Below, one piece after another: positions 172-32,000 of a DNA stretch of 32,000 nt. The position numbers and the translations under genes are program-made. Within the stretch, counting starts at the first letter, position 1, and each line of letters begins with the position of its first letter. Source of the stretch: Methanothermobacter marburgensis str. Marburg (GTDB lineage Archaea > Methanobacteriota > Methanobacteria > Methanobacteriales > Methanothermobacteraceae); the NCBI RefSeq assembly GCF_000145295.1, contig NC_014408.1, positions 1,260,001-1,292,000 of the forward strand. The letters are read 5' to 3'. Below the pieces are notes generated by a model. It did no database searches. It was given only the letters and a program-made list of their open reading frames with translations, and was not told the origin of the DNA.

Positions 172-1368
172 GTGATCGAGATGTTCCGGGATATTCCTGT
201 TAAATATGTTGGATGCACCCACCGGGCCATGAAGCCCTCAGAGACACTCAGGGCCTTCAGGGAAAAACTCAGGGCCATAGGTGTCACAAGGATAACCGAG
301 ATAACACACCTTGATCGTATAGGCATACCTGTATTCTCAGCCATAAGGCCGACAGCGGAGGAGGGTGCTGTTAGCATATACGCAGGTAAGGGCGCCACCA
401 GAAAACAGGCAAGGGCCTCTGCAATGATGGAGGCCTTTGAAAGGTACTCTGCCGAGAGAAGTCCCCTGGACGAAACACTGAGGGCCCATCCATCCGAGAT
501 GGATAAACGCCTGGACCCTGAAGCACTTATTCTTCCACCAAACGCTGATACAGACTCTGAGGTTGAGTGGATAATTGCAGAGGATATAAAAAGTCAGGAC
601 AGGATTCACGTACCTGCAAATGCGGTTTTTCACCCTTACAATCCCCCTGAGGGATGTGTGAGTCTCTTCAGGTCCAACACCAATGGCCTTGCATCAGGTA
701 ACGTCCTGGAGGAGGCCATATTCCACGGCCTCATGGAGGTGATAGAGAGGGACGCCTGGAGCCTCTTTGAGGCAAGGAGGGGTCCCCGAATAGAAATTGA
801 TTGTTCGGGGACAGATAACAGGATAATAACGTGTCTACTTGAAAGGTTCCAGAGGGCAGGGGTTGAGATAACACTGGTGGATCTCACCGCTGACACTGGC
901 GTTGCAACGGTTGCTGCAGTTGCAGATGATGTTGTGCTCAGGGACCCTGCACTCCTCACCATGGGCGTGGGGACCCACCTTGACCCTGAAATTGCAGTTA
1001 TAAGGGCCCTCACAGAGGTTGCCCAGAGCCGGGCCACCCAGATACACGGCACCAGGGAGGACACAGTAAGGGCGGAGTTCATGAGGAGGGCCGGGTATGA
1101 GAGGATGAAGAGGCTAAACAGGCACTGGTTCTCTGAGCCCGATAATACCATTGCACTTGAGGATATGGATGACCTCTCAACAAGGTCATTCCAGAGGGAC
1201 CTTGAGATTACCCTGGATAAACTGGAGAGGGCGGGCCTGAAGCAGACACTCTATGTGGATCTAACCCGTGATGTTGGTGTTCCCGTTGTAAGGGTCATTG
1301 TACCGGGACTTGAGGTTTTCTCTGTTGACCCTGAAAGGGTGGGGGGACGCATAAGGTCCTCCAGGTGA
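172..1368 (+). CDS. ycaO: YcaO-family ATP-dependent enzyme, methanogen type (McrA thioglycine-forming thioamidation enzyme; methanogenesis marker 1 type)
   Basis: 398-aa ORF starting at GTG 172, or at ATG 181 which is preceded by GTGATC matching the anti-SD. Hallmark YcaO stretches are present: [58 protein letters not shown]. It is immediately followed by tfuA. Confidence 0.9.
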
Positions 1369-1426
1369 ATATCATAAGCCCACACAGATGAAATGATTAA
1401 GTGACCCTACGCACTAGATAATCCAT

Positions 1427-2110
1427 ATGCACAGCAGAAAGATCATAATATTTACAGGACCATCACTTTCCCACAGTGATGCATCAGATATCCTAAGGGC
1501 AGATTACAGACCCCCTGTAAGGCGGGGTGACGTCCATGAGGCCCTCTCTGATAAGCCAGACATAATAGGGATAATTGACGGTGTATTTCATCAGAGTCCG
1601 GCAGTGGGGCACCGTGAAATCATTGAGGCCCTCAGGATGGGCGTTACCGTTGTTGGAGGGGCCAGTATGGGGGCGCTAAGGGCCTCTGAACTCTATGACT
1701 TGGGGATGGTGGGAGTCGGCCGTATATTCAGGGCCTACCTGAATGGTGATCTGGAATCTGATGATGATGTTGCAGTTGCCTTTAACCCTGAAACCCTCGA
1801 GGCCCTCTCTGATTCCCTTGTGAGCATTCATTTTAACTTTGAAAGGGCCCTTGAAAGTGGCATCATCGGTGAAGATGACTTCAGAGAACTCATGAAAATC
1901 GCTAAGAATCTATTTTATCCCCTCAGGAACTACCAGAGAATTCTGCATGACGCAGAAATACCTGAAAACAGAAAGGCATCCCTCATGTCATTCCTTGAAT
2001 CTGAAGGTAGGGATATAAAAAGGGAGGACGCAATTGAGGTTATAAAATACATTAAGGGACTGCTAAGCTCTGATGATCAGGATCATGGATGTGAAACTCA
2101 TGGATCTTGA
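1427..2110 (+). CDS. tfuA: TfuA-like protein (YcaO partner in peptide thioamidation)
   Basis: 227-aa ORF. N-terminus IIIFTGPSLSHSDA...ADYRPPVRRGDV and GIIDGVFHQSPAVGHREI...GGASMGALRA match the TfuA family as I remember it. It lies 58 nt downstream of ycaO on the same strand. Confidence 0.85.
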   Translation: MHSRKIIIFTGPSLSHSDASDILRADYRPPVRRGDVHEALSDKPDIIGIIDGVFHQSPAVGHREIIEALRMGVTVVGGASMGALRASELYDLGMVGVGRIFRAYLNGDLESDDDVAVAFNPETLEALSDSLVSIHFNFERALESGIIGEDDFRELMKIAKNLFYPLRNYQRILHDAEIPENRKASLMSFLESEGRDIKREDAIEVIKYIKGLLSSDDQDHGCETHGS

Positions 2111-3185
2111 ATCAAAGATAAAAAAGGTGAAGGATGCCCTTAAAGGCAGGAAGGTTGCTGTCGGATTCTCATGTGGGGCTGATAGCACAGCACTTCTTGA
2201 TATTGCAGGGGATTCCGCCGATGAGGTTGCTGCATTCACAGTTGACACAGGTTTTATGCCCCCAGGATTCATAGAAAATGCCTCATCAATTGCCGGATCC
2301 CTCGGGGTGGAGCACTTTATAATAAACAGACCGCTCCTTGAAAACCAGGAGTTTGTGAGTAACACCCCGGAGAGGTGCCTTGTATGTAAGAACATCATAT
2401 ACAGTTCAATACTCTCTGAGGCCAGAAAAAGGGGTTTTGAGGCTGTCCTTGATGGCACAACCGCAAGTGACATGTTCGAAGACCGGCCTGGAACCCTGGT
2501 TAACCATCTGCTGGGTATAGAGACCCCCCTCCTTGATGCGGGGATTACGCGGAGTGACGTCCTTGAATATCTCAAAAAGAGGAACCTTGAATACTCGGAG
2601 AACACCACATGCCTTGCAACAAGGATAAAGGATCAGGAGATAACGCCTGAACGGATAAACAGGGTCTCATATGCTGAAACTCTCGTTAGGGGACTTTACG
2701 GTGAGGGCATCGTGAGGGTCAGGCATGAGGGGGACTCTGCGATAATAGAGGTTGATGAACCTGAGAGGCTTCTCAATGCAGCAAATCTGAGGCATATAGA
2801 GAATGAGTTGAGGGCTGTCGGGTTTAAGAGGGTGCTCCTGGATCTCACAGGCTACAGGGAGGGTAAGAAGGACATTGTACTCTACAGGCCCTGCAGGGAT
2901 GCTGAATCAAGGATAATGTTCGAGGTTAAGCTGCCCTACCACATCGATATAAAAGAAACCTGTGAAAAGCTGGAGGAGAGGAAGCCCCGATGCTCAGAGA
3001 AGATGGGTGTCGTCATGGTTGAGGTGGGTGAAAGTAACGTGACCATATTCAGGAACGGGAAGATAGTGGCAAGAAGGGTAGTGGACAGGGAAGACGCAGA
3101 GGAGGTGCTCCTTGAGGTGCTGCCACACATCATAAGGGCGCATGAGGACATGGAGTCACAGAATCACTCTCAATCAGAAGCATGA
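2100..3185 (+). CDS. PP-loop ATP pyrophosphatase, LarE/TIGR00268-like sulfur-transferase homologue with an extra ~105-aa C-terminal domain
   Basis: PP-loop VAVGFSCGADS. Family-typical PERCLVCK, LDGTTASDMFEDRPG, TTCLATR, VRVRHEGDSAIIEV and LLDLTGYREG. Possible starts are ATG 2073, 2085 and 2100. I prefer 2100 because it leaves the usual ~16 aa before KVAVGFS, and all three overlap the tfuA stop (TGA 2108-2110). Confidence 0.8.
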   Translation: MDLESKIKKVKDALKGRKVAVGFSCGADSTALLDIAGDSADEVAAFTVDTGFMPPGFIENASSIAGSLGVEHFIINRPLLENQEFVSNTPERCLVCKNIIYSSILSEARKRGFEAVLDGTTASDMFEDRPGTLVNHLLGIETPLLDAGITRSDVLEYLKKRNLEYSENTTCLATRIKDQEITPERINRVSYAETLVRGLYGEGIVRVRHEGDSAIIEVDEPERLLNAANLRHIENELRAVGFKRVLLDLTGYREGKKDIVLYRPCRDAESRIMFEVKLPYHIDIKETCEKLEERKPRCSEKMGVVMVEVGESNVTIFRNGKIVARRVVDREDAEEVLLEVLPHIIRAHEDMESQNHSQSEA

Positions 3186-3300: not shown

Positions 3301-3669
3301 TCACAGGGCCCTCTGGACGTTCTCATTAACCCTCCTTCTGAAGGCGGTGATCTTCTGAAGGAGACCCCTTGAATCATCACCCCTTAAAACAAGTCCAGAG
3401 GGGGTGCTGAACTCAATACCATCGGCACTTATCCCATTGAAAATTATCTCAACCTCACTGGAGTCATCAGGGAGGTCATTGGTCCTCACCGTGTAATCAA
3501 GCAGTAGCTCATCATGGGGGAGTACCTCAGAGATGGCCCTCTTCAGTGTCATCTCAAGTACATCCAGCAGTGTCTCAATAACCGGCAGATCATACCACCA
3601 GCAGTAGCCAAGTAGCATCTTGATCTCGATGTCCCTTATTGAGACCTCACCATGGTTCTTAGCCGCCAC
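3301..3669 (-). CDS. hypothetical protein, no family recognised
   Basis: 122-aa ORF (GTG 3669, alternative ATG 3618), co-directional with and 39 nt downstream of the CBS gene. The composition is normal and not antisense-shadow-like. I recognise no motif. Confidence 0.5.
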   Translation of the reverse strand: MAAKNHGEVSIRDIEIKMLLGYCWWYDLPVIETLLDVLEMTLKRAISEVLPHDELLLDYTVRTNDLPDDSSEVEIIFNGISADGIEFSTPSGLVLRGDDSRGLLQKITAFRRRVNENVQRAL

Positions 3670-6298: not shown

Positions 6299-7636
6299 TC
6301 AGAATTTCCTGATGTTGTTTGTTTCTGATTTCTCAGAGACCTTGTTGTAGTAGTCGGCCTTAACCGTTCCCCGTGAGTACCTGTAGTAGGTCTTTAGTGT
6401 GACCGTCGCGCCCGGGTTCAGTGTGCCTGTGTACACCTGTTTATAGTTCTTTGTTGAATAGCTGCCATACCACACCCTTGTGTAGAAGTTTCTGGCTGCA
6501 GCTGTCCCCTGGTTCTTAACGTATATGTAGAGTGTGCTTCCAGATTTTCTTGTTCCTGTGACCACAAGGTCGGGTTTTGGGTTTCCAACTGTGATTGTCT
6601 TCTTCTTAACTGAGATTAAGCCGTTGCTATCTGTCGCGGTCAGTGAAACTGTGTAGTAGCCATCCCTTGCATAGGTGTGGGTGACCTCTTCACATGCTGC
6701 TGTTGAGCCGTCACCGAAGTTCCATTTGAGTGTTATTGTGTCGTTATCAGGGTCATATGCAGTTGACCTGAAGGTGAATGCCCTGAGTGATGTTGAACCG
6801 CAGTAGGTGTATGTGAAGTCTGCCACAGGTTTGCTTCCTGTGAAGTTGGGTTTGACCTTGGTTCTGTACCATTCCTCTGCGGCGGCATCATCATAGGGTG
6901 TTGTATTACTGGCCCCCGGGAAGGTGCCGTTCCAGTCCCCAACAAAGGCCGCATATCCATGGTCGTTGCGCCAGATGGTTGTGCCATTGTAAACTGTACT
7001 CTTATTTATAACCTCAAAGTTCTTCTGGTTGGCCTCATAGAAGTTCCTGGAGCCGTTCAGGAAGTCGTATATTATCTCTGCACCATCCCATGCTGTGGCA
7101 TAGTAGTTGGCGCCTGAACCTGTGAACATCCTTGAGAAGTGGTAGATGGTCTCTATGGGGTTCTTAACCTCATAATCCTCAACCCATCCGGTTGAGAAGC
7201 ATGCGTGTAGTAATATTACGGGTATTCCTTCCTTGAAGGGCAGGTAAAAGGTCTGTCCATTGACCTGCACCATATCCCCTGCACCCCATATGTAGCCGTC
7301 ACTTGCAACCAGTGAGAATGGTGGGCTGGCATATCCCCCACGGCAGTCATAGTTCCCTGACATGTATCCTCCGTGGCCCGCGTATATCACAGCATCTGCA
7401 CCGTACATGCCCTTGAGTATGTTCTTAACGGTTGCATTTCCCTTGTAGAGTTCAACTACCTGGTAGCCCCTGTTCTTGAGGGTTGTTGCAACCTTCTTTG
7501 CCTCATCATACATGCAGCTGCTATCTGAGAGGCTGTCTGCAACTATGAGTATGTGGGCCTCTGATAGGGGTAATGCAGTGAGTGATAATATTATGAATGC
7601 AGCGAGCATGAGTTTTCCATATCTCATGTCCTTCAC
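6299..7636 (-). CDS. secreted multidomain protein: signal peptide + N-terminal alpha/beta domain with His/Cys dyad-like motifs + PKD domain + CARDB-like domain
   Basis: Signal peptide MKDMRYGKLMLAAFIILSLTALPLSEA. PKD signature WNFGDGS...HTYARDGYYTVSLTATDSNG (aa ~270-350, nt 6587-6829). C-terminal PDLVVT...YIYVKNQGTAAA...LNPGATVT is CARDB-like (nt ~6302-6577). Eight N-x-S/T sequons. Confidence 0.75.
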   Translation of the reverse strand: MKDMRYGKLMLAAFIILSLTALPLSEAHILIVADSLSDSSCMYDEAKKVATTLKNRGYQVVELYKGNATVKNILKGMYGADAVIYAGHGGYMSGNYDCRGGYASPPFSLVASDGYIWGAGDMVQVNGQTFYLPFKEGIPVILLHACFSTGWVEDYEVKNPIETIYHFSRMFTGSGANYYATAWDGAEIIYDFLNGSRNFYEANQKNFEVINKSTVYNGTTIWRNDHGYAAFVGDWNGTFPGASNTTPYDDAAAEEWYRTKVKPNFTGSKPVADFTYTYCGSTSLRAFTFRSTAYDPDNDTITLKWNFGDGSTAACEEVTHTYARDGYYTVSLTATDSNGLISVKKKTITVGNPKPDLVVTGTRKSGSTLYIYVKNQGTAAARNFYTRVWYGSYSTKNYKQVYTGTLNPGATVTLKTYYRYSRGTVKADYYNKVSEKSETNNIRKF

Positions 7637-24977: not shown

Positions 24978-26096
24978 GTGGTGAAATTCAATAACATAGT
25001 CTATGACCCCCAGCTAACAGATAAAAAGTTCCCTGTGAAGGCCTCTGATCCTGAAAGGGAGGCAAAACTTGTTGTTCTCCAGCCGGTTGGATACCCCTTC
25101 GTATGCAACCTGATGGAGTCCCCGAGGATAGATGCCGTTAACAAGGAACTCTTTGAGATCTATGCAAGGGACCAGTGGGAGGGTTTCAGTGCAACTGAGG
25201 GTTCCTACCTATTCGACCAGAAACTGCTCCCTGACTATGCATTCAAGATAATAAGGGCCCACCCTGACGGTTCAAAGATAACCAGAAACACCTCCATTAT
25301 ACTGCTGGAGAACGAGAGGGAGGAGTTCCATGAGGTGAAAAGTGATATCACCATGGACGATGTTATCGGTCAGGAGGACGCCAAGATAAAGTGCAGGATA
25401 ATCATGAGGTACCTTGAGGACCCGGACAGATTCAGGGACTGGGCGCCCAGGAACGTCCTCTTCCATGGAAGCCCGGGTACCGGTAAGACCATGCTTGCAA
25501 AGTCCCTTGCAAATGAACTCAGGGTACCCCTCTACCTTATAAAGGCCACAAGCCTCATAGGTGAGCATGTGGGTGACGGTGCGAGGCAGATACATGAACT
25601 CTATGAACTGGCATCAAAAACTGCCCCATCAGTTATATTCATAGATGAGATGGACGCAATTGGCCTCGACCGGAGATTCCAGTCCCTCCGTGGGGACGTC
25701 TCAGAGGTTGTTAACGCACTCCTGACAGAGATGGATGGTATAAATCAGAACTGGGGTGTTGTAACCATAGGGGCGACCAATAACCCTGAACTTCTTGATA
25801 ATGCAATAAGAAGCCGTTTTGAGGAGGAAATAGAGTTCAAGTTACCGGGGGATGATGAGAGGCGGATGATGCTTGAGAAATACATTGAGACCATGCCCCT
25901 GGATGTGGATTTCTCCGTGGACAAACTTGTTAAACTGACAAAAGGGATGTCAGGAAGGGATATAAAGGAGAGGGTGCTTAAAACAGCCCTCCACAGGGCA
26001 CTGGCAGATGAAAGTCCAAGGGTGGAGCGTGAACACATAGAATATGCTCTTAAGGAGCGTGATCTGAAGAGCGAACCCAGGCACATGTTCGCCTAG
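24978..26096 (+). CDS. single-domain AAA+ ATPase with CDC48-N-like N-terminal domain (resembles the AMA group of methanogens/Archaeoglobus)
   Basis: Walker A GSPGTGKT, Walker B VIFIDEMD, second region of homology [17 protein letters not shown] ~140-aa N-domain precedes the single AAA module. GTG start behind AGGTGA. Confidence 0.88.
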
Positions 26097-26101
26097 ATCA
26101 A

Positions 26102-26141
26102 TTTTTTAATTTTATAAAATCCGTTTAAACTTTAATTTTTT
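26102..26141 (+). terminator. oligo-T tracts downstream of the AAA ATPase gene
   Basis: T6 at 26102-26107, directly after the TAG stop, and T6 at 26136-26141. Archaeal RNAP terminates at oligo-T. Confidence 0.4.
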
Positions 26142-26144
26142 AGT

Positions 26145-26335
26145 GGTTAAAGAACTCCATGAGCACAAAACCCAAATTCTCCACAGCCCTTTCCTGGTTA
26201 AAGAACTCCATGAGCACAAAACCCAATTCTCTACAGTCTTTTCCCGTTTAAAGAACTCCATGAGCACAAAACCCAATTCTCTACAGTCTTTTCCCGTTTA
26301 AAGAACTCCATGAGCACAAAACCCAATTCTCTACA
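26145..26335. repeat. head-to-tail tandem repeat, 50-bp unit, ~3.8 copies
   Basis: Units are 26145-26195 (51 bp, diverged), 26196-26245, 26246-26295 and 26296-26335 (truncated). Units 2 and 3 differ at 1 position. Unit 4 is identical to unit 3 over 40 nt. Consensus: GTTTAAAGAACTCCATGAGCACAAAACCCAATTCTCTACAGTCTTTTCCC. Confidence 0.95.
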
Positions 26336-26354
26336 TTAAGAGATCAGGAAATCC

Positions 26355-26361
26355 AAAAAAA
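26355..26361 (-). terminator. T7 tract immediately downstream of the hemA stop
   Basis: An A7 run on the + strand at 26355-26361 is a T7 run on the coding strand, 1 nt after the TAG stop (26363-26365). Confidence 0.45.
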
Positions 26362-26362
26362 C

Positions 26363-27559
26363 CTAAGATTCATCACAATCAAAGAGCTCAGAACACATCC
26401 TCAAGAACTCTCTATCATCCCTCTCTGCAGCATCCCTGATTTTCAGTGCAATATCATGGAATATCTTATCAACTATTGACCTTGTGAGACCCTCAACAAC
26501 CCTCTCAGGGTCCTTGCTGTTTTCAATTTTCTTAATTGCCTTACCTGCCTCCCTCTGCCGGAGGGACTCCATGCGCCCCCTTATTTCAGCAAGAAGTGGC
26601 TCCACCTCCCTGTGCTTCATGGCCCTCAGGAGGAGTTCAAGTTCAGCCCTTACTATCCCCTCAGCCTCCCTTGCCTCGGCCTCTCTCCTCTTCCGGTTCT
26701 CCTCGGCCACGCCCCTGAGGTCATCGATTGTGAATAGCCTGACTCCAAGTTCCCTCACGGATTCCTCTATATCCCTTGGGTTGGCTATGTCCACCATCAC
26801 AATGCTGGACCTCCTCTCAGGGGGAACCGCATCCATGACACGCTCACGGGTGAGTATGTAGTGGGGTGAGCCTGTGGCACTTATAACAACATCTGCATCC
26901 CTGAGGGCCCTGTTGAGCCTGTCGAAGTGTATTGCATCACCGCCGAGTTCGCATGCAAGCTGGTAGGCCCTCTCATATGTTCTGTTTGCAACCATTATTG
27001 CCTTGAGGTGCTTTTCGGCGAGGGCACGGGCAACCAGTGTCCCCATTTTACCGGCCCCTATAACAAGGACCTTCTTGCATTTCAGGTCACCGTGTATTGA
27101 CTCTGCAAGATCAACAGCCGCTGATCCTATTGAGACAGAACCCCTGTTTATCTTCGTCTTCCGCCTCACGGTCTGTCCCACATGGACCGCCTTGGTGAAC
27201 ACCATATCAAGGAGGGGCCCGCAGGTGCCCTCACGGAGGGCCTGTAGCCTTGCAGCCTTTATTTGTCCAAGTATCTGGTCCTCCCCGATTATCATGGACT
27301 CAAGGCCTGAAGCCAGTCTCAGAAGGTGCAGAAGGGCATCCTCATCTTTTTCAACTGTAAATCCATTAAAATCAAATTCAGGTGGGACCCCTGTGACATG
27401 AAGGTAGTACTCGACCCTGTTGCAGGTCATCAGTGGCACCTTCTCGGTCACGGCTCCAAGGGCCTCAAGTTCACCCACAATCTCCTCTATTCTGCCTGAT
27501 GCTGTCTCCATTGTCTTCACATCAGAGGTCTTGTGGTCGAGTCTTATGTTAAGAATCAC
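26363..27559 (-). CDS. hemA: glutamyl-tRNA reductase
   Basis: 398 aa. Catalytic Cys context PLMTCNRVEYY, NADPH loop VLVIGAGKMG, long C-terminal dimerisation helix. GTG start overlaps the upstream gene by 11 nt. Confidence 0.93.
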   Translation of the reverse strand: MILNIRLDHKTSDVKTMETASGRIEEIVGELEALGAVTEKVPLMTCNRVEYYLHVTGVPPEFDFNGFTVEKDEDALLHLLRLASGLESMIIGEDQILGQIKAARLQALREGTCGPLLDMVFTKAVHVGQTVRRKTKINRGSVSIGSAAVDLAESIHGDLKCKKVLVIGAGKMGTLVARALAEKHLKAIMVANRTYERAYQLACELGGDAIHFDRLNRALRDADVVISATGSPHYILTRERVMDAVPPERRSSIVMVDIANPRDIEESVRELGVRLFTIDDLRGVAEENRKRREAEAREAEGIVRAELELLLRAMKHREVEPLLAEIRGRMESLRQREAGKAIKKIENSKDPERVVEGLTRSIVDKIFHDIALKIRDAAERDDREFLRMCSELFDCDES

Positions 27560-28166
27560 CTGAAGCCCCCCTATCCATGATTATGTCCCGAGCCCTTCTT
27601 ATGGCACCCTCCAGATCACCAGCTTCAAGTTTTTCCTGTACCATTTTATCCTCTGAGATCTCATAGAGAATTCTGCGCCTCTTTCTGTGATCCTGGACCT
27701 CTTCCATTAGCATGCGGCGGGATACATCCTGAACCTCAATCATTAGTATATCCTCTGGTTTTATGGCCTCCTGGATCCTCCTGCGAAGGTATTTTGCCAT
27801 AAGTGGACTCTTTTTACCTGTGAATACTGAGATTGAAACATCCGCTATTTTGAATGTCGATGGGACAACCACGTTACCCCTTGATGGGTCATCTGCCCGG
27901 TTAAGGAGTTTGCCACCTGCAAGTTCAGTTACCCTTTCATTGAGGCTTCTATCGGGACTTGCGGCAACTATGAGGTCTGCCTTCTTAATCCACTCCTCAA
28001 GTTTTTCTTCTGTGATTGAAACAGCGCCTTCAACTTCCTGTCCAAGAACCGCGACCTCTGCACCGGCCTCGATGAACCTCATCGCCCTTCTTCTTCCAAC
28101 TTCACCTGAACCCACCACGAGTACCCTCTTACCTTCCATGTCAATGTAGAGGGGTGTGAGGGACAT
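27549..28166 (-). CDS. sirC: precorrin-2 dehydrogenase / sirohydrochlorin-forming enzyme (siroheme synthase N-domain, SirC/Met8-like)
   Basis: 205 aa. Rossmann start KRVLVVGSGEVGRRR, size and layout of the CysG-N/Met8 family. Overlaps hemA. Confidence 0.85.
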   Translation of the reverse strand: MSLTPLYIDMEGKRVLVVGSGEVGRRRAMRFIEAGAEVAVLGQEVEGAVSITEEKLEEWIKKADLIVAASPDRSLNERVTELAGGKLLNRADDPSRGNVVVPSTFKIADVSISVFTGKKSPLMAKYLRRRIQEAIKPEDILMIEVQDVSRRMLMEEVQDHRKRRRILYEISEDKMVQEKLEAGDLEGAIRRARDIIMDRGASGDS

Positions 28167-28177
28167 TTTACCATCCG

Positions 28178-28645
28178 TCAGAGGGATTTCATTCTGAGTA
28201 TCTTCATGGCTGTTCTGAGGTCATTATCTGCCTCGGCAAGGGCCTCCCTGGCCTCTTCAATGGATACATCAAAGGCGTCTGCCAGGGCCTTCACACTGTC
28301 GGTGTCAGGTTCAGATGTGCCCACAAGTTCCTCTGAGAGCCTCTTTTTGAGTTCCATGTACTCCTCAGTTGTCATGTTGATCCTCTTCATGGCCATGTCC
28401 CTGAGTGGACAGGGCTTTGAGGGCTTGCAGCACCAGACAAGTGAACCGAAGCATGTCCCCTGGCCCTCGCCGAGCCTCGTATTCCTTGCGAATGACTCCT
28501 TGATTTCAATGTAATCCTGTGGTGTCAGTCCCGCCTCCTCGAGTGCTATCATTATTGGGCAGGGCTTCACCGGTGGGCAGCAGAATGTAAGCGCCCTTTT
28601 ATCACCACCCCTGCAGACATGGGATGGTGCGTCGCTCCATACCAA
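28178..28645 (-). CDS. uncharacterised Cys-rich protein: two C-x(6-10)-CC-x-P-x-K-P-C-P modules plus a UBA-like C-terminal helix bundle
   Basis: 155 aa. TTG start 28645 with AAGGAGGA 7 nt upstream. Internal duplication: [20 protein letters not shown]...TPQDYIEIK versus [16 protein letters not shown]...TTEEYMELK. The tail [31 protein letters not shown] resembles NAC/EF-Ts UBA domains. It may correspond to one of the 'methanogenesis marker' families, but I cannot verify this. Confidence 0.7.
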
Positions 28646-28778
28646 ACACAGTCCTCCTTTATTAATTATGTTTATTCTGTTAATAATAATTCATTACATG
28701 GTGGCTGAAATAACACCACTTAATGCCTTTAACAGCTTTTTTGATAAATAAATTGTGGTTCGCAGATAATAAAGGGGG

Positions 28779-30371
28779 TTATTCCCTGAGCATCCCCCTC
28801 TTCTCATCAGGTGTGAGGTCCCCGACGATTGACTCTGGTTCACCTGTCTTGAGGATTCTGCCCCCCCTCATGAGGGATGCCCTGTCACAGACATCAAGGA
28901 CAAAGTCCATGTCATGTGAAATTATCAGGAAGGTCTGATTCAGCTCCTCCCTGGCCTTCAGGATTGAATCTGTAACCTGCACCCTGGTTATGGGGTCCAT
29001 GGTACCTGTGGGCTCATCAAGTATTATTATCCTGGGCTCCCTGATGAGAACCTGGGCAAGGGCGACCCTGTGTCTCTCACCACCTGAGAGCTCGTCAGGG
29101 TACTTGTCAAGGAGGTTCTCTGCGTACTCCTCATCAAAGCCCACTGCCTTGAGGACATAGATTGCCTTCATCCTGGCAAATTCTGCCGGGAGCTCAAGGC
29201 TGATGGCCTCTGTGAGGTTACCAAGCACATCCCTGTGGGGGTAGAGGCTGTACTCCTGGTGGAGTATCCCAAGGTAGGGCGTTACACGGCCACGGCCAAG
29301 GGGTCCCTTCTCGGTCATGTCTATCCATTCATCACCCAGCCTCACGCAGACCTTCCCGCTGCTTGGCTCGGTTATTCCGATTATTATCCTTGAGAGCGTC
29401 GTCTTACCGGCTCCGCTGAGCCCCACGACACCAAAGATTTCACCCTCATAGACTGTGAGGTCAACACCGTCAACCGCCTTTACAACACCCCTGTCAATGG
29501 AGTAGTAGTGCTTCTTAACATCAACCATCTTTATGATGGGGGTTTCCCTTTCAAACTCCTTCACCTTCTCAGGTGCGGGCACCTGTTCCATGAACCTGGC
29601 AACCACGTCATCAGGGTCTCCCTCCTCGATTATCTCACCCTTCTCGATCCATATGGCATAATCAGAGAGGTCCCTCATGACCTCGGGCCAGTGGGAGGTT
29701 ATGATCATGGTTATTCCCTTATCCTTGACACCCTCAAGGAGTGCGTCGTGTATGAGCTCAGCTGTCTGGGGGTCAAGGGTACCTGTTGGCTCATCAGCCA
29801 GGAAAACCATTGGTTCCTTGGCCAGCTGCCTTGCAAGGACAACCCTCTGCTTTTCACCACCACTGAGATCCCTTGCAATGTGGGTTATCCTGTGGCTCAT
29901 CTGAACCATTTCAAGGAGGTCAAGGGCATGGTAGAGGGCTGTTTCATATTCAAGATCTGGCATTGACTTTATGACGTTATCGATTACCGTGTCGTCCTCA
30001 TAGAGGGCAAATGTCCTCTGGAGCATTATGGCTATTCTTCTCCTGACGGCGGCGAAGGTCTTCTTGTCACAGTTCCAGAAGTCCACCTCCCGGACTGAAA
30101 ATTTTGAGCCGCATCCACATACCTTACCCTCAAAGGAGGGGGGTTCAACTCTGAGGCATTCAGGGCAGATTGCCACATTGTAGATGACACGGCCGCTGTC
30201 GGGCTTGTATTCCTTCATACCCCTCAGCATGTTTATGAGAACAGATTTTCCTGCCCCACTTCTTCCCAGTATCCCCAGGACCTTGCCCTCATCGATTTCA
30301 ACGCTGATGTTTTTTAGAACCTCGACACCCTTAAACTTCTTTGTGACGTTTTCCAGCTTTATGAAAGACAT
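28779..30371 (-). CDS. atwA: methyl-coenzyme M reductase system component A2-type ABC ATPase (AtwA or paralogue)
   Basis: 530 aa. Two ABC cassettes with no membrane domain: Walker A GRSGAGKS and GLSGAGKT, signatures LSGGEKQRV and [10 protein letters not shown] Cys-rich insert [20 protein letters not shown] sits in cassette 1. Size and architecture match component A2. Confidence 0.88.
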
Positions 30372-30465
30372 ATGCTCACCCTCAGTTGCTAAAATTAACG
30401 TTACCAGTGAAAGATGAATCTGTATTATTCTTTTGATAAAGGGACTATTAAAATTTTCTAAATTT

Positions 30466-31227
30466 TTAGTCTGGGTTAAATCTGAGTTCCCTGAGATTGA
30501 AGTCTATCCTGCCAGATATGGCGGCCCTTGCAATTGATACAGCATCTGCACCTGCAGCAAGCATTGCAGCGGCGGATTCAGGGTCTCTCACTGAATTGTT
30601 ACCTATCATGACAGCATTCCTTAAACTCTGTGAAACTTCACTTACAAGTTCAAGGTCAGCCCTATCCTCCCCTGGTTTCATGGCGTCCAGGTGAATGTAG
30701 CCTACCCCAAGGTCATCAAGCATTCCTGCAATGTCAGCCGTATCAACTCCAGGCACATTTCCCCGTATCTTGACAGAGACCTCTGCATTGGCACCCTTCA
30801 CAACCTCAGATGTGAAGTCCTTCAGAAAATCAGGGTCATGGAGCATCGCCTGTCCGGCACCCAGAGAGGTTATCTCTGGCTGTCTGCAGTGTGCATTTAT
30901 CTCAACAATATCCACTTCCTCAATGGATGATATCTCCATGATGGGTTCAGGGTCAAGGGCCCTGAGGTTCACAGAGACCAGCACATCAAAACTGTCCTTT
31001 ATCCTTGATGCCTCAGATTCTACTATGGATTTAAGTTCAGAAGAGTCAAAATCAAATTCAGGTCTGCCCCTCTGGGCTATTAGCCTTCCAGCCCTGGATG
31101 TTTCCTCATCTGCATTGTAACCGCCCAGTGTAACAGCATCGAAACCATAGGGGATAAGTTTCATGCAGAATTCTGCATCGGTTATACCTGCCATTGGGGC
31201 CAGGACAATTATGCTATCAGCAACCAT
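30466..31227 (-). CDS. Dus/NifR3-related TIM-barrel (putative flavin oxidoreductase), short archaeal type
   Basis: 253 aa. [29 protein letters not shown] and [12 protein letters not shown] parallel the Dus motifs (LAPMAGVTD, N-x-GCP, K-x-R, GaDgVMiGR). It is much shorter than bacterial Dus. Confidence 0.72.
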
Positions 31228-31271
31228 AGGTTTTTGGTTAGAAAATCTTGATAATGCAGGACCTCATCCAC

Positions 31272-32000
31272 CTATTCCTTCATCACATGGACCAGGTCAT
31301 ATGTGAAGCCGCCCCTTATCTCCTCGAGGGCCAGGTCTGCCAGGTTGGCAGCCTTCTCAGCTGTTGGTGCCTTCCCGATACCTGCCTTGAGTGCAACGTT
31401 TATCTCGTCATCTATTTCATTGAGTATGCGAAGCAGACCCTGCGGTTCAAGGCCGTTACAGGGGGACATGAAGTTATCTCCACCTATGAAGAATAGAAGG
31501 GCGCCCTCCTTTATGAGTTTCTTCATCAGAAAGTGCTGGACCCGGTTAACAATGAATGATGTGTCATAGGCCGGCACAATGTCGGTCATGGTCTCTGTGA
31601 TGCCATTTATATCAATATGTGCAATCTGCACATAACCCTCATCCACAAGACCATCTATGGCAAGGACCTCCTTCCTGTCCTCTGATTGGGCTCCCCCATG
31701 GCTCTGAAGAGCCCTTGAAGCGTTTCTCTGGGCATCATAGGGTGTCTCAGCGGCTCCTACACCCATACTCACGGTTATGGGGTAACGGTTACCTATGGAC
31801 CTCTGTATCCTTCTGTGGTCCTCCACTCCTATACCATTGGTGATGGCAAGCATGTTATCGAATCTTGTGAAGAAAACAAGTCCCTGACGGGCAGCAAACT
31901 GGCGCTGAAGGTCAGCGTAAAGTTCTGCCTGGAGTATCTGAAGATCAGCCTCATTACGTGGGGCTGGTGTGACTGTCCATGGCCCATAATTGTCTATCTG
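31272..32000 (-). CDS. gch3: GTP cyclohydrolase III (FAPy-forming), N-terminus a few codons outside window
   Basis: The reverse strand reads in frame from base 32000: [24 protein letters not shown]...[14 protein letters not shown]...[19 protein letters not shown]...[14 protein letters not shown]...[11 protein letters not shown]...[25 protein letters not shown]. This closely parallels the Methanocaldococcus GTP cyclohydrolase III sequence as I remember it. The ORF track shows only the part after the internal Met at 31853. Confidence 0.9.

Follow-up and report, generated by a model that had tools for sequence, protein, structure and literature searches.

Methanogenesis marker 9 (Mmp9) is a protein family that has been catalogued as TIGR03277, COG4008, arCOG04853, marker m25 and, in M. 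maripaludis, MMP1704. MMP1704 was reported as specific to all methanogens (Gao and Gupta, 2007), and m25/arCOG04853 is contained in the Borrel and Adam marker sets. The marker was traced to the last common ancestor of methane metabolisers, was described as "related to dihydrouridine synthase" and was given a possible role involving F420 (Adam et al., 2022). In the same study, m25 was missing in Methanopyri and in many Halobacteriota bearing methyl-coenzyme M reductase (MCR), and was found in Lokiarchaeia without MCR and also in JdFR-21. The COG4008 entry is labelled "predicted metal-binding transcription factor". The literature found on the family consists of catalogue listings, with no experimental work, and its function has been blank since the markers were first defined. 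Here, a 32,000-nucleotide stretch of the Methanothermobacter marburgensis str. Marburg genome (contig NC_014408.1, positions 1,260,001 to 1,292,000; hereafter the window) that carries an mmp9 gene was analyzed. The encoded protein scores 191.4 bits against TIGR03277 (methan_mark_9; cut-off 96.2), with amino acids 2–109 on profile positions 1–108 of 109. It is identical (100%) to database protein P0001 and shares 97–99% amino acid identity with Methanothermobacter proteins named marker 9. Judged by sequence, the gene is thus an annotated member of the catalogued family. An earlier reading of the window made from the letters only (the sequence-only reading) had called the protein uncharacterised, with no assigned function; no function has indeed been assigned, but the family is already named. 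We propose, with a probability of roughly 0.4, that Mmp9 is a detachable metal-cluster module, probably iron-sulfur (Fe-S), that serves a flavoenzyme similar to dihydrouridine synthase (Dus), here termed DusL, whose gene lies in the same window (Table 1).

The evidence carrying this proposal is the domain architecture of the family. A search of 1.84 billion 50%-identity clusters retrieved 106 representatives (E ≤ 1e-3), and about 500 clusters of the family exist at 90% identity. Four architectures were distinguished. (a) Free-standing proteins with a tail of about 40 amino acids occur in Methanobacteriales and Methanococcales. (b) A Dus-like flavin mononucleotide (FMN) TIM barrel of the MJ0144 family (TIGR00736) is followed at its C-terminal end by the Mmp9 domain, without a tail. 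This fused form, of about 375–385 amino acids, is the usual one in Methanolobus, Methanomethylovorans and Methanosarcina and is also present in Methanoregula. (c) Divergent free-standing forms comprise about 140–180 amino acids; if we may guess from the marker report by Adam et al., their source may be Lokiarchaeia. (d) A divergent branch of about 200–240 amino acids, one member of which comes from a Thermoprotei metagenome-assembled genome (MAG), carries a C-terminal ribbon-helix-helix (RHH, CopG-like) domain. An example is P0169, which matches CopG_antitoxin (E = 6.8e-6) and phrog_7325 (E = 5e-6), and this branch is presumably the source of the "transcription factor" label of COG4008. Outside Methanobacteriales and Methanococcales, the matches to Mmp9 proper in this representative search mostly sit at the C-terminal end of a Dus-like domain homologous to DusL of the window, or are fragments of such fusions, with a free-standing 114-amino-acid form (P0139/P0140) as the exception. 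None of the 106 representatives has the Mmp9 domain fused to a tetrapyrrole enzyme. The only signal that crosses order boundaries is the fusion or co-clustering with a Dus-like flavoprotein, and Mmp9 is therefore read as an accessory domain of such a protein. In addition, the Mmp9 domain lies inside three giant proteins, P0172 (1650 amino acids), P0197 (1749) and P0202 (1448), which also contain ARMT1-like, archaemetzincin (M54), GlnD-type or Methyltransf_28 domains and may represent either genuine multidomain proteins or gene-calling artefacts.

The structural comparison of the fused form points to the same enzyme family. When window DusL was aligned to Escherichia coli DusB (6ei9), the catalytic Cys and Lys motifs of Dus were found to be kept. 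The AlphaFold2 (AF2) model of the Methanosarcina fusion is a compact single unit, with a predicted local distance difference test (pLDDT) of 88.6 and a predicted template modelling score (pTM) of 0.84. Its nearest solved structures are Thermus thermophilus Dus, DusB and DusC, followed by dihydroorotate dehydrogenase (DHODH) and dihydropyrimidine dehydrogenase (DPD). The Foldseek alignment of the fused model to Dus (3b0v/6ei9) extends over about 375–388 columns into the helical C-terminal region, at a root-mean-square deviation (rmsd) of about 17 Å. The isolated Mmp9 model gave no Dus match in Foldseek.

The second line of evidence is the cysteine pattern. The eight cysteines of Mmp9 were found exactly at the positions given in the sequence-only reading (C11, C22, C23, C29 and C65, C72, C73, C79). 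They lie in the motifs C22-C-P-P-V-K-P-C29-P of module 1 and C72-C-K-P-S-K-P-C79-P of module 2, which are followed by T41-P-Q-D-Y-I-E-I-K49 and T92-T-E-E-Y-M-E-L-K100, so that the helix pattern T-x-[QE]-[DE]-Y-[IM]-E-[IL]-K noted earlier after each module is also present. The homology of the two modules holds as well: amino acids 1–55 and 56–112 align with a BLOSUM62 local score of 84, against 21.4 ± 4.2 for 2000 shuffled controls (maximum 43, none reaching 84). The module has the consensus C-x6/10-CC-x5-C-(P)-x-R-D ... [DE]-Y-x-x-[IL]-K. Complete proteins of 54–70 amino acids consist of one four-Cys module, C-x6-CC-x5-C-x-x-R-D ... [DE]-[YF]-x-x-L-K, in the layout of module 2. Since such single-module proteins exist, the module is a self-contained, all-alpha four-Cys unit of about 50 amino acids that Mmp9 carries as a tandem duplication. 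The single-module mini-proteins are P0206, P0207, P0215, P0216 and P0222, and P0188 and P0205 carry two copies of the second-type module. No viral relative of the Cys module was found in PHROGs.

Conservation of these residues is complete. Down to approximately 25–30% identity, neither the eight cysteines nor K49, R82 and Y96 vary in two alignments, one of 29 domain sequences and one of 48 full-length proteins. The named hosts, every one of them a strict anaerobe, belong to Methanobacteriales, Methanococcales, Methanosarcinaceae and Methanoregula, and a divergent relative occurs in the Thermoprotei MAG. Of the earlier interpretation, the idea of a metal-binding protein is thus kept as a presumption, for a protein that is conserved and typical of methanogens. 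The sequence-only reading had also held that a family widespread outside methanogens, with no linkage to tetrapyrrole or MCR genes, would speak against its proposal. This is the case in part, as some relatives outside methanogens show neither linkage.

The AF2 model of Mmp9 is all-alpha, with a mean pLDDT of 90.6. Against the Protein Data Bank (PDB), Foldseek found no match for the Cys domain (best E value 0.8), and all high-probability matches fall on the tail; a PDB sequence search gave nothing below E = 0.1 except coiled-coil noise. The earlier suggestion of a UBA-like three-helix end is well supported. Amino acids 115–151 match the UBA family PF24767 (E = 3.6e-6; 27.1 bits, just reaching the cut-off of 27), and the tail also matches the nascent polypeptide-associated complex (NAC) family TIGR00264 (E = 1e-3). 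Its helices in the model span amino acids 115–125, 129–138 and 143–154 and superpose on UBA domains of NAC, EF-Ts and Cbl-b with rmsd of 0.7–1.7 Å and probabilities of 0.9–1.0. The best example is archaeal NAC 1tr8_A, with an rmsd of 0.7 Å over 37 residues. In the window protein, the isoelectric point (pI) is 6.6 for the Cys domain, 5.2 for the whole protein and 4.4 for the tail. The tail is present in the free-standing forms of Methanobacteriales and Methanococcales, being UBA-like in the window protein and similar in sequence elsewhere, and is absent from the fused forms. This confinement to free-standing forms suggests that the tail is a docking element for free-standing Mmp9.

Synteny in Methanobacteriales was examined in the best 80 loci of a related-locus search (Methanothermobacter, Methanobacterium and Methanobrevibacter), and gaps were estimated over 75 of them. 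The genes mmp9, sirC and hemA are adjacent in essentially every locus reaching them (75 of 80 measurable), and the co-oriented order arfA(GCH III)-dusL-atwA-mmp9-sirC-hemA is found in essentially all loci extending far enough. The atwA gene adjoins mmp9 in all loci reaching it except the rearranged L062. Median gaps are 8 nucleotides for atwA-mmp9, 13 for mmp9-sirC and 36 for sirC-hemA, with gaps of 30 nucleotides or less in 41 of 75 loci for atwA-mmp9 and in 50 of 75 for mmp9-sirC. In many relatives, mmp9 is thus packed no less closely against atwA than against sirC. The sequence-only reading had placed mmp9 as the first gene of a three-gene unit with sirC and hemA. This does not hold in general, as the packed unit is atwA-mmp9-sirC-hemA in the 41 loci with a short atwA-mmp9 gap. 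In many Methanobacterium loci, the atwA-mmp9 gap is only 4–8 nucleotides, so no promoter could be conserved there, and the 133-nucleotide spacer of the window is not a conserved feature. One locus, L075 (CAVDAS010000069.1), is labelled "Bacteroidaceae bacterium" but carries a Methanobrevibacter-type mmp9-sirC-hemA-AAA block that is 71% identical to the query; the contig is probably archaeal and mis-binned.

The gene context differs in other lineages. The proposed linkage to sirC and hemA is kept throughout Methanobacteriales but was seen in no other lineage examined, among them Methanocaldococcus, Methanofervidicoccus, Methanosarcina, a Methanolobus-like contig and Methanoregula. The packing of mmp9 with sirC and hemA is an operon layout of Methanobacteriales and not a family-wide functional link. 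In Methanocaldococcus, mmp9 follows eIF2a-Nop10-arfB with a 4-nucleotide gap (ArfB, 339 bits), and cfbE lies 3.4 kb away. In Methanofervidicoccus, mmp9 is an isolated gene; the arfB-mmp9 pair, which is not seen there, was dropped as a general Methanococcales trait. The gene for the 114-amino-acid form lies between ABCE1 and GluRS-L44e-S27e-eIF2a. Two mutually divergent Mmp9-like genes (L091 7001–7983 and L093 261–1231) each stand directly before L29-SUI1/aIF1, on contigs with scattered ribosomal genes, and another divergent free-standing Mmp9-like gene adjoins HSP20. The RHH-fused paralogue of the Thermoprotei MAG (L087/L088 8001–8645) is found amid about 15 co-oriented genes without a Pfam match, beside a 1971-amino-acid protein and an S8 peptidase, a setting that may represent a mobile element or a locus for a surface structure.

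The fused genes have a recurrent neighborhood. In four class II methanogen lineages, i.e., Methanosarcina, the Methanolobus-like contig, a further lineage and Methanoregula (L094/L095 7001–11329; L086; L081–L083; L096), CitG-like and DUF447 genes that overlap come directly after dusL::mmp9, and the CitG-like proteins of the four lineages share 37–49% amino acid identity with each other. In Methanosarcina, the gene for dihydromethanopterin reductase DmrX (TIGR02700, 410 bits) is located about 0.2–0.8 kb past the CitG-like and DUF447 genes, with a small opposite-strand open reading frame (ORF) between them in one of the two genomes. This operon suggests a link to methanopterin biosynthesis. Methylotrophs have an island orf19-orf20-afpA-orf21-orf22, in which we take orf19 to be DUF447 and orf21 to be CitG-like. 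The island is counted among the tetrahydromethanopterin (H4MPT) genes (PMC3615186). No CitG-like or DUF447 gene was found near mmp9 in the Methanobacteriales loci or in the window. In Methanoregula (L096 2217–6280, minus strand), an F430-type cluster of CbiX-small/cfbA, cfbE, Oxidored_nitro/cfbD-like and CbiA/cfbB-like genes is divergent from the fused gene, with a 153-amino-acid Hjc-like gene between them. On an AT-rich contig (L099 1–7176), dusL::mmp9 is located 1.8 kb downstream of mcrBDCGA, with PCNA and TFS-like genes between them on the opposite strand and no CitG-like or DUF447 gene after it. Overall, the neighborhoods hint at different pathways, namely methanopterin (CitG-like, DUF447, DmrX), flavin or deazaflavin (arfA, arfB), MCR (atwA, mcr) and tetrapyrroles (sirC, hemA, cfb), and none of them is universal.

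In the proposed mechanism, each four-Cys module would hold one metal centre, with Fe-S favoured, and the two centres would relay low-potential electrons to or from the FMN of DusL. The UBA-like tail would dock free-standing Mmp9 onto its partner, and the resulting DusL-Mmp9 holoenzyme would act by reduction or desaturation at a C=C or C=N bond, probably in a methanogen-typical cofactor biosynthesis or in MCR maturation. Metal binding, the Fe-S identity of the centres, electron relay and physical association with DusL in the host are what we infer here. Electron relay is preferred over substrate binding because of the two sets of four invariant cysteines without a CxxC knuckle, the Cys-Pro ending each module of the window protein and the strictly anaerobic nature of the named hosts. 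The missing CxxC knuckle, the Cys-Pro ends and the anaerobic hosts also make Fe-S more likely than Zn. Methanogens tend to rely on ferredoxin or F420 rather than NADPH. A more specific version, in which DusL and Mmp9 form an unrecognised ferredoxin-linked flavoenzyme with two clusters in a new all-alpha four-Cys fold and catalyze an unassigned methanogen redox step, appears rather doubtful. Candidates are a step in methanopterin or sarcinapterin biosynthesis, in view of the operon that the class II fused gene shares with CitG-like and DUF447 genes, beside DmrX in Methanosarcina, and an MCR desaturation such as that giving didehydroaspartate.

Several points weigh against Mmp9 as an electron-relaying partner of DusL. 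Adjacent Cys-Cys pairs are atypical for cubane clusters, the all-alpha module has neither a ferredoxin motif nor a ferredoxin fold, and canonical Dus enzymes receive hydride straight from NAD(P)H. The Mmp9 domain of the fusions sits exactly where Dus carries its helical RNA-binding domain, and the Foldseek alignment runs through this region, at the high rmsd given above; a substrate-binding role of the domain is thus a live alternative. The free-standing Mmp9-like genes beside L29-SUI1 or HSP20 have no Dus-like gene in their vicinity, and the RHH-fused paralogues look like sensors or regulators. In Methanobacteriales, atwA separates dusL from mmp9, and no dusL was found near mmp9 in Methanocaldococcus or Methanofervidicoccus.

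Other explanations were weighed against the same data. The sequence-only reading proposed that Mmp9 works with SirC and HemA as a metal or Fe-S carrier, a redox partner or a regulator at the sirohydrochlorin branch point leading to F430, cobamides and siroheme. The conserved mmp9-sirC-hemA block of Methanobacteriales, with its short mmp9-sirC gap, argues for this role, and faint echoes of it are the divergent cfbA-cfbE-cfbD-cfbB-like cluster near the fused gene of Methanoregula, the cfbE gene of Methanocaldococcus at 3.4 kb and, in one lineage, the position of GluRS, the maker of the HemA substrate, after mmp9. However, the tight linkage is limited to one order, in which shared descent can account for it, and atwA is equally tight on the other side. 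No tetrapyrrole gene adjoins mmp9 in Methanosarcina, the Methanolobus-like contig, Methanofervidicoccus, L081 or L099, and across the family the fusion partner is a Dus-like flavoprotein, never a tetrapyrrole enzyme. Thus the linkage on which the idea was built stands for Methanobacteriales while its extension to the family does not, and we regard a branch-point role as unlikely. A role in RNA modification, in which the MJ0144 protein would be a true RNA dihydrouridine synthase and Mmp9 a helical substrate-recognition domain stabilised by a structural metal, is a further alternative. The fused model is closest to T. thermophilus Dus-tRNA, DusB and DusC, with alignments that reach into the helical C-terminal region, the catalytic Cys and Lys are kept, and the 253-amino-acid MJ0144-type barrel has no helical domain of its own. 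Moreover, most Mmp9 domains are basic (pI 7.5–9.3), with K49, R82 and K100 invariant, the tail is akin to the UBA domains of NAC and EF-Ts, and translation genes recur as neighbors (eIF2a-Nop10, L44e-S27e, L29-SUI1, GluRS). Yet the fused model superposes poorly on the Dus helical domain, Mmp9 alone finds no Dus, the Cys domain of the window protein is not basic and the whole protein is acidic, and ribosomal-gene neighborhoods are commonplace for small housekeeping genes. A tRNA modifier is also not expected to track methanogenesis, and Mmp9 is listed as methanogen-specific (Gao and Gupta, 2007). This explanation, too, is considered improbable.

An action of Mmp9 and the Dus-like protein on MCR, either as a redox or maturation factor beside component A2 or as a modifying enzyme (e.g., for didehydroaspartate), is consistent with the position of atwA directly upstream of mmp9, at a median of 8 nucleotides over the 75 Methanobacteriales loci. 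In one case, mcrBDCGA is found 1.8 kb upstream of a fused gene, the window also contains ycaO-tfuA, which serve McrA thioglycine formation, and the family is catalogued as methanogen-specific. Chemistry of the DHODH type desaturates an aspartate-derived C-C bond, which fits the modifying-enzyme variant. In contrast, Mmp9 is not in the solved MCR activation complex (McrC, Mmp3, Mmp7, Mmp17 and A2) and, going by the 2026 A2 preprint, is not part of the "activation operon" of Methanosarcina. The adjacency to A2 is restricted to Methanobacteriales, and the phyletic pattern of the marker departs from that of MCR on both sides, with absence from Methanopyri and many MCR-bearing Halobacteriota and presence in MCR-less Lokiarchaeia (Adam et al., 2022). 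An MCR-directed role is accordingly rated as quite improbable. Under the COG4008 annotation, Mmp9 would be a transcription factor that binds metal, responds to metal or redox state and controls neighboring genes, and the divergent branch of about 200–240 amino acids with its C-terminal CopG-like domain agrees with that label. The Mmp9 of the window, by contrast, has neither an RHH nor a helix-turn-helix (HTH) domain, and its tail is UBA-like and acidic. The methanogen forms are enzyme fusions or carry the UBA tail, and the RHH branch occurs in unrelated contexts in a Thermoprotei MAG, which makes a regulatory function of Mmp9 highly improbable. The reading of Mmp9 as a cluster module of DusL remains our preferred one.

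The features of the locus are listed in Table 1. The spacings given in the sequence-only reading were confirmed: 11 nucleotides (28167–28177) separate the mmp9 stop from the sirC start, sirC and hemA overlap by 11 nucleotides, and 133 nucleotides separate mmp9 from atwA. The identities of the three neighbors, the TTG start codon of mmp9 and its own Shine-Dalgarno sequence 7 nucleotides ahead likewise agree with what had been read. The dusL gene, located two genes upstream of mmp9 and encoding the partner proposed here, had not been considered in that reading. An N-terminal truncation of GTP cyclohydrolase III was dropped, as the gene extends past the window end. No Rfam match was found over 26000–32000, the spacer included.

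Table 1. Coordinates, strand and supporting evidence of features around mmp9 in the window (position 1 is the first nucleotide of the 32,000)
Feature	Position	Strand	Evidence
hemA, glutamyl-tRNA reductase	26363..27559	minus	TIGR01035, 374.8 bits
sirC, precorrin-2 dehydrogenase / siroheme synthase N-terminal domain type	27549..28166	minus	TIGR01470, 80.9 bits; PF13241, E = 4e-26
mmp9 coding sequence (155 amino acids + stop), methanogenesis marker 9 domain-containing protein	28178..28645	minus	ORF; TIGR03277
Acidic linker and UBA-like three-helix tail, amino acids 113–155	28181..28309	minus	PF24767; TIGR00264; model helices; Foldseek
Cys module 2, amino acids 58–112	28310..28474	minus	C65-x6-C72C73-x5-C79-P-L-R82-D83, then helices up to E-Y96-M-E-L-K100
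Cys module 1, amino acids 1–57	28475..28645	minus	C11-x10-C22C23-x5-C29-P, then helices up to D-Y-I-E-I-K49
AT-rich 133-nucleotide spacer between atwA and mmp9, candidate promoter	28646..28778	minus	Sequence
Shine-Dalgarno sequence AGGAGG	28653..28658	minus	Sequence reading; 7 nucleotides 5' of the mmp9 TTG
atwA, MCR system component A2, directly 5' of mmp9	28779..30371	minus	TIGR03269, 952.6 bits
dusL, MJ0144-family Dus-like FMN TIM-barrel protein, 253 amino acids	30466..31227	minus	TIGR00736, 324 bits; Pfam Dus, E = 5e-17
arfA, GTP cyclohydrolase III/IIa, runs off the window end	31272..32000	minus	PF05165, E = 2.8e-93; frame open to base 32000

Elsewhere in the window, ycaO (TIGR03266, 574 bits) and tfuA (NF033432), the McrA thioglycine genes, were identified at 172–3185 on the plus strand, which places a second MCR-maturation cluster 25 kb from atwA-mmp9. 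A gene for a LarE-type sacrificial sulfur transferase follows tfuA with a 38-nucleotide overlap. A PRS2-type AAA+ ATPase gene (PRS2_N, AAA and PRS2 lid; 24978–26096, plus strand) is convergent to hemA, and its position is kept in most Methanobacteriales loci. A 445-amino-acid ORF (6299–7636, minus strand) and a 122-amino-acid ORF (3301–3669, minus strand) had no NCBIfam match at E ≤ 1e-5.

For the window, these results describe a known, annotated family member whose link to sirC and hemA is an order-specific layout. For the family, they tie a conserved methanogenesis marker to an MJ0144-family flavoprotein and, in its fused form, to a conserved operon shared with CitG-like and DUF447 genes and, in some cases, DmrX, turning two hypothetical families into one testable enzyme hypothesis. 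They also indicate that a four-Cys all-alpha module without a solved structure recurs in mini-proteins, in tandem Mmp9, in enzyme fusions and in RHH fusions. If the enzyme proved to catalyze a missing step of methanopterin or F430 biosynthesis or of MCR maturation, it would be relevant to heterologous MCR expression and to methanogenesis inhibitors.

Among known systems, the C-terminal 2×[4Fe-4S] domain of DPD/PreA offers the nearest analogy to the proposed role. It likewise places two four-Cys sites after an FMN TIM barrel, as in the Mmp9 fusions, and by analogy Mmp9 might relay electrons to FMN; the barrel of the fused protein has DPD among its best structural matches. PyrK of DHODH 1B is a further analogue of this type of relay. 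Unlike the DPD/PreA domain, Mmp9 has no CxxCxxCxxxCP motif, no Fer4 Pfam match and no ferredoxin match in PDB, and it is all-alpha rather than (beta-alpha-beta)2; neither sequence nor structure searches matched it to the Fe-S domain of DPD. The C-terminal helical tRNA-binding domain of bacterial Dus (3b0v, 6ei9 and DusC 4yco) resembles the Mmp9 domain of the fusions in being helical and in its position after the barrel, but it does not have the eight metal-type cysteines of Mmp9. As small Cys-rich modules of anaerobe redox proteins, HdrB-type CCG (PF02754) and WhiB-like (Wbl) [4Fe-4S] proteins were also compared. CCG domains contain an adjacent Cys-Cys pair, are duplicated and bind unusual Fe-S clusters. 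Mmp9 differs from both in that it has no PF02754 match (E ≤ 0.01) or Wbl match and no structural match to them, its CC pair lacks a following Gly, it has no CXXC, and its spacing is C-x6/10-CC-x5-C. The tail of Mmp9 is a compact three-helix bundle like the UBA domains of archaeal NAC (1tr8), the EF-Ts N-terminal domain, Cbl-b and PF24767; unlike those of NAC and E3 ligases, it follows a Cys-rich domain, and no ubiquitin-like ligand is known for it. Compared with the TIGR03277 family itself, the Mmp9 of the window is structurally no different, being a full-scoring member with the same eight invariant cysteines. For this family, only the name was already known, and what is added here is the autonomous module, the alternation between tail and fusion, and the fused-gene operon with CitG-like and DUF447 genes, which in Methanosarcina lies beside DmrX.

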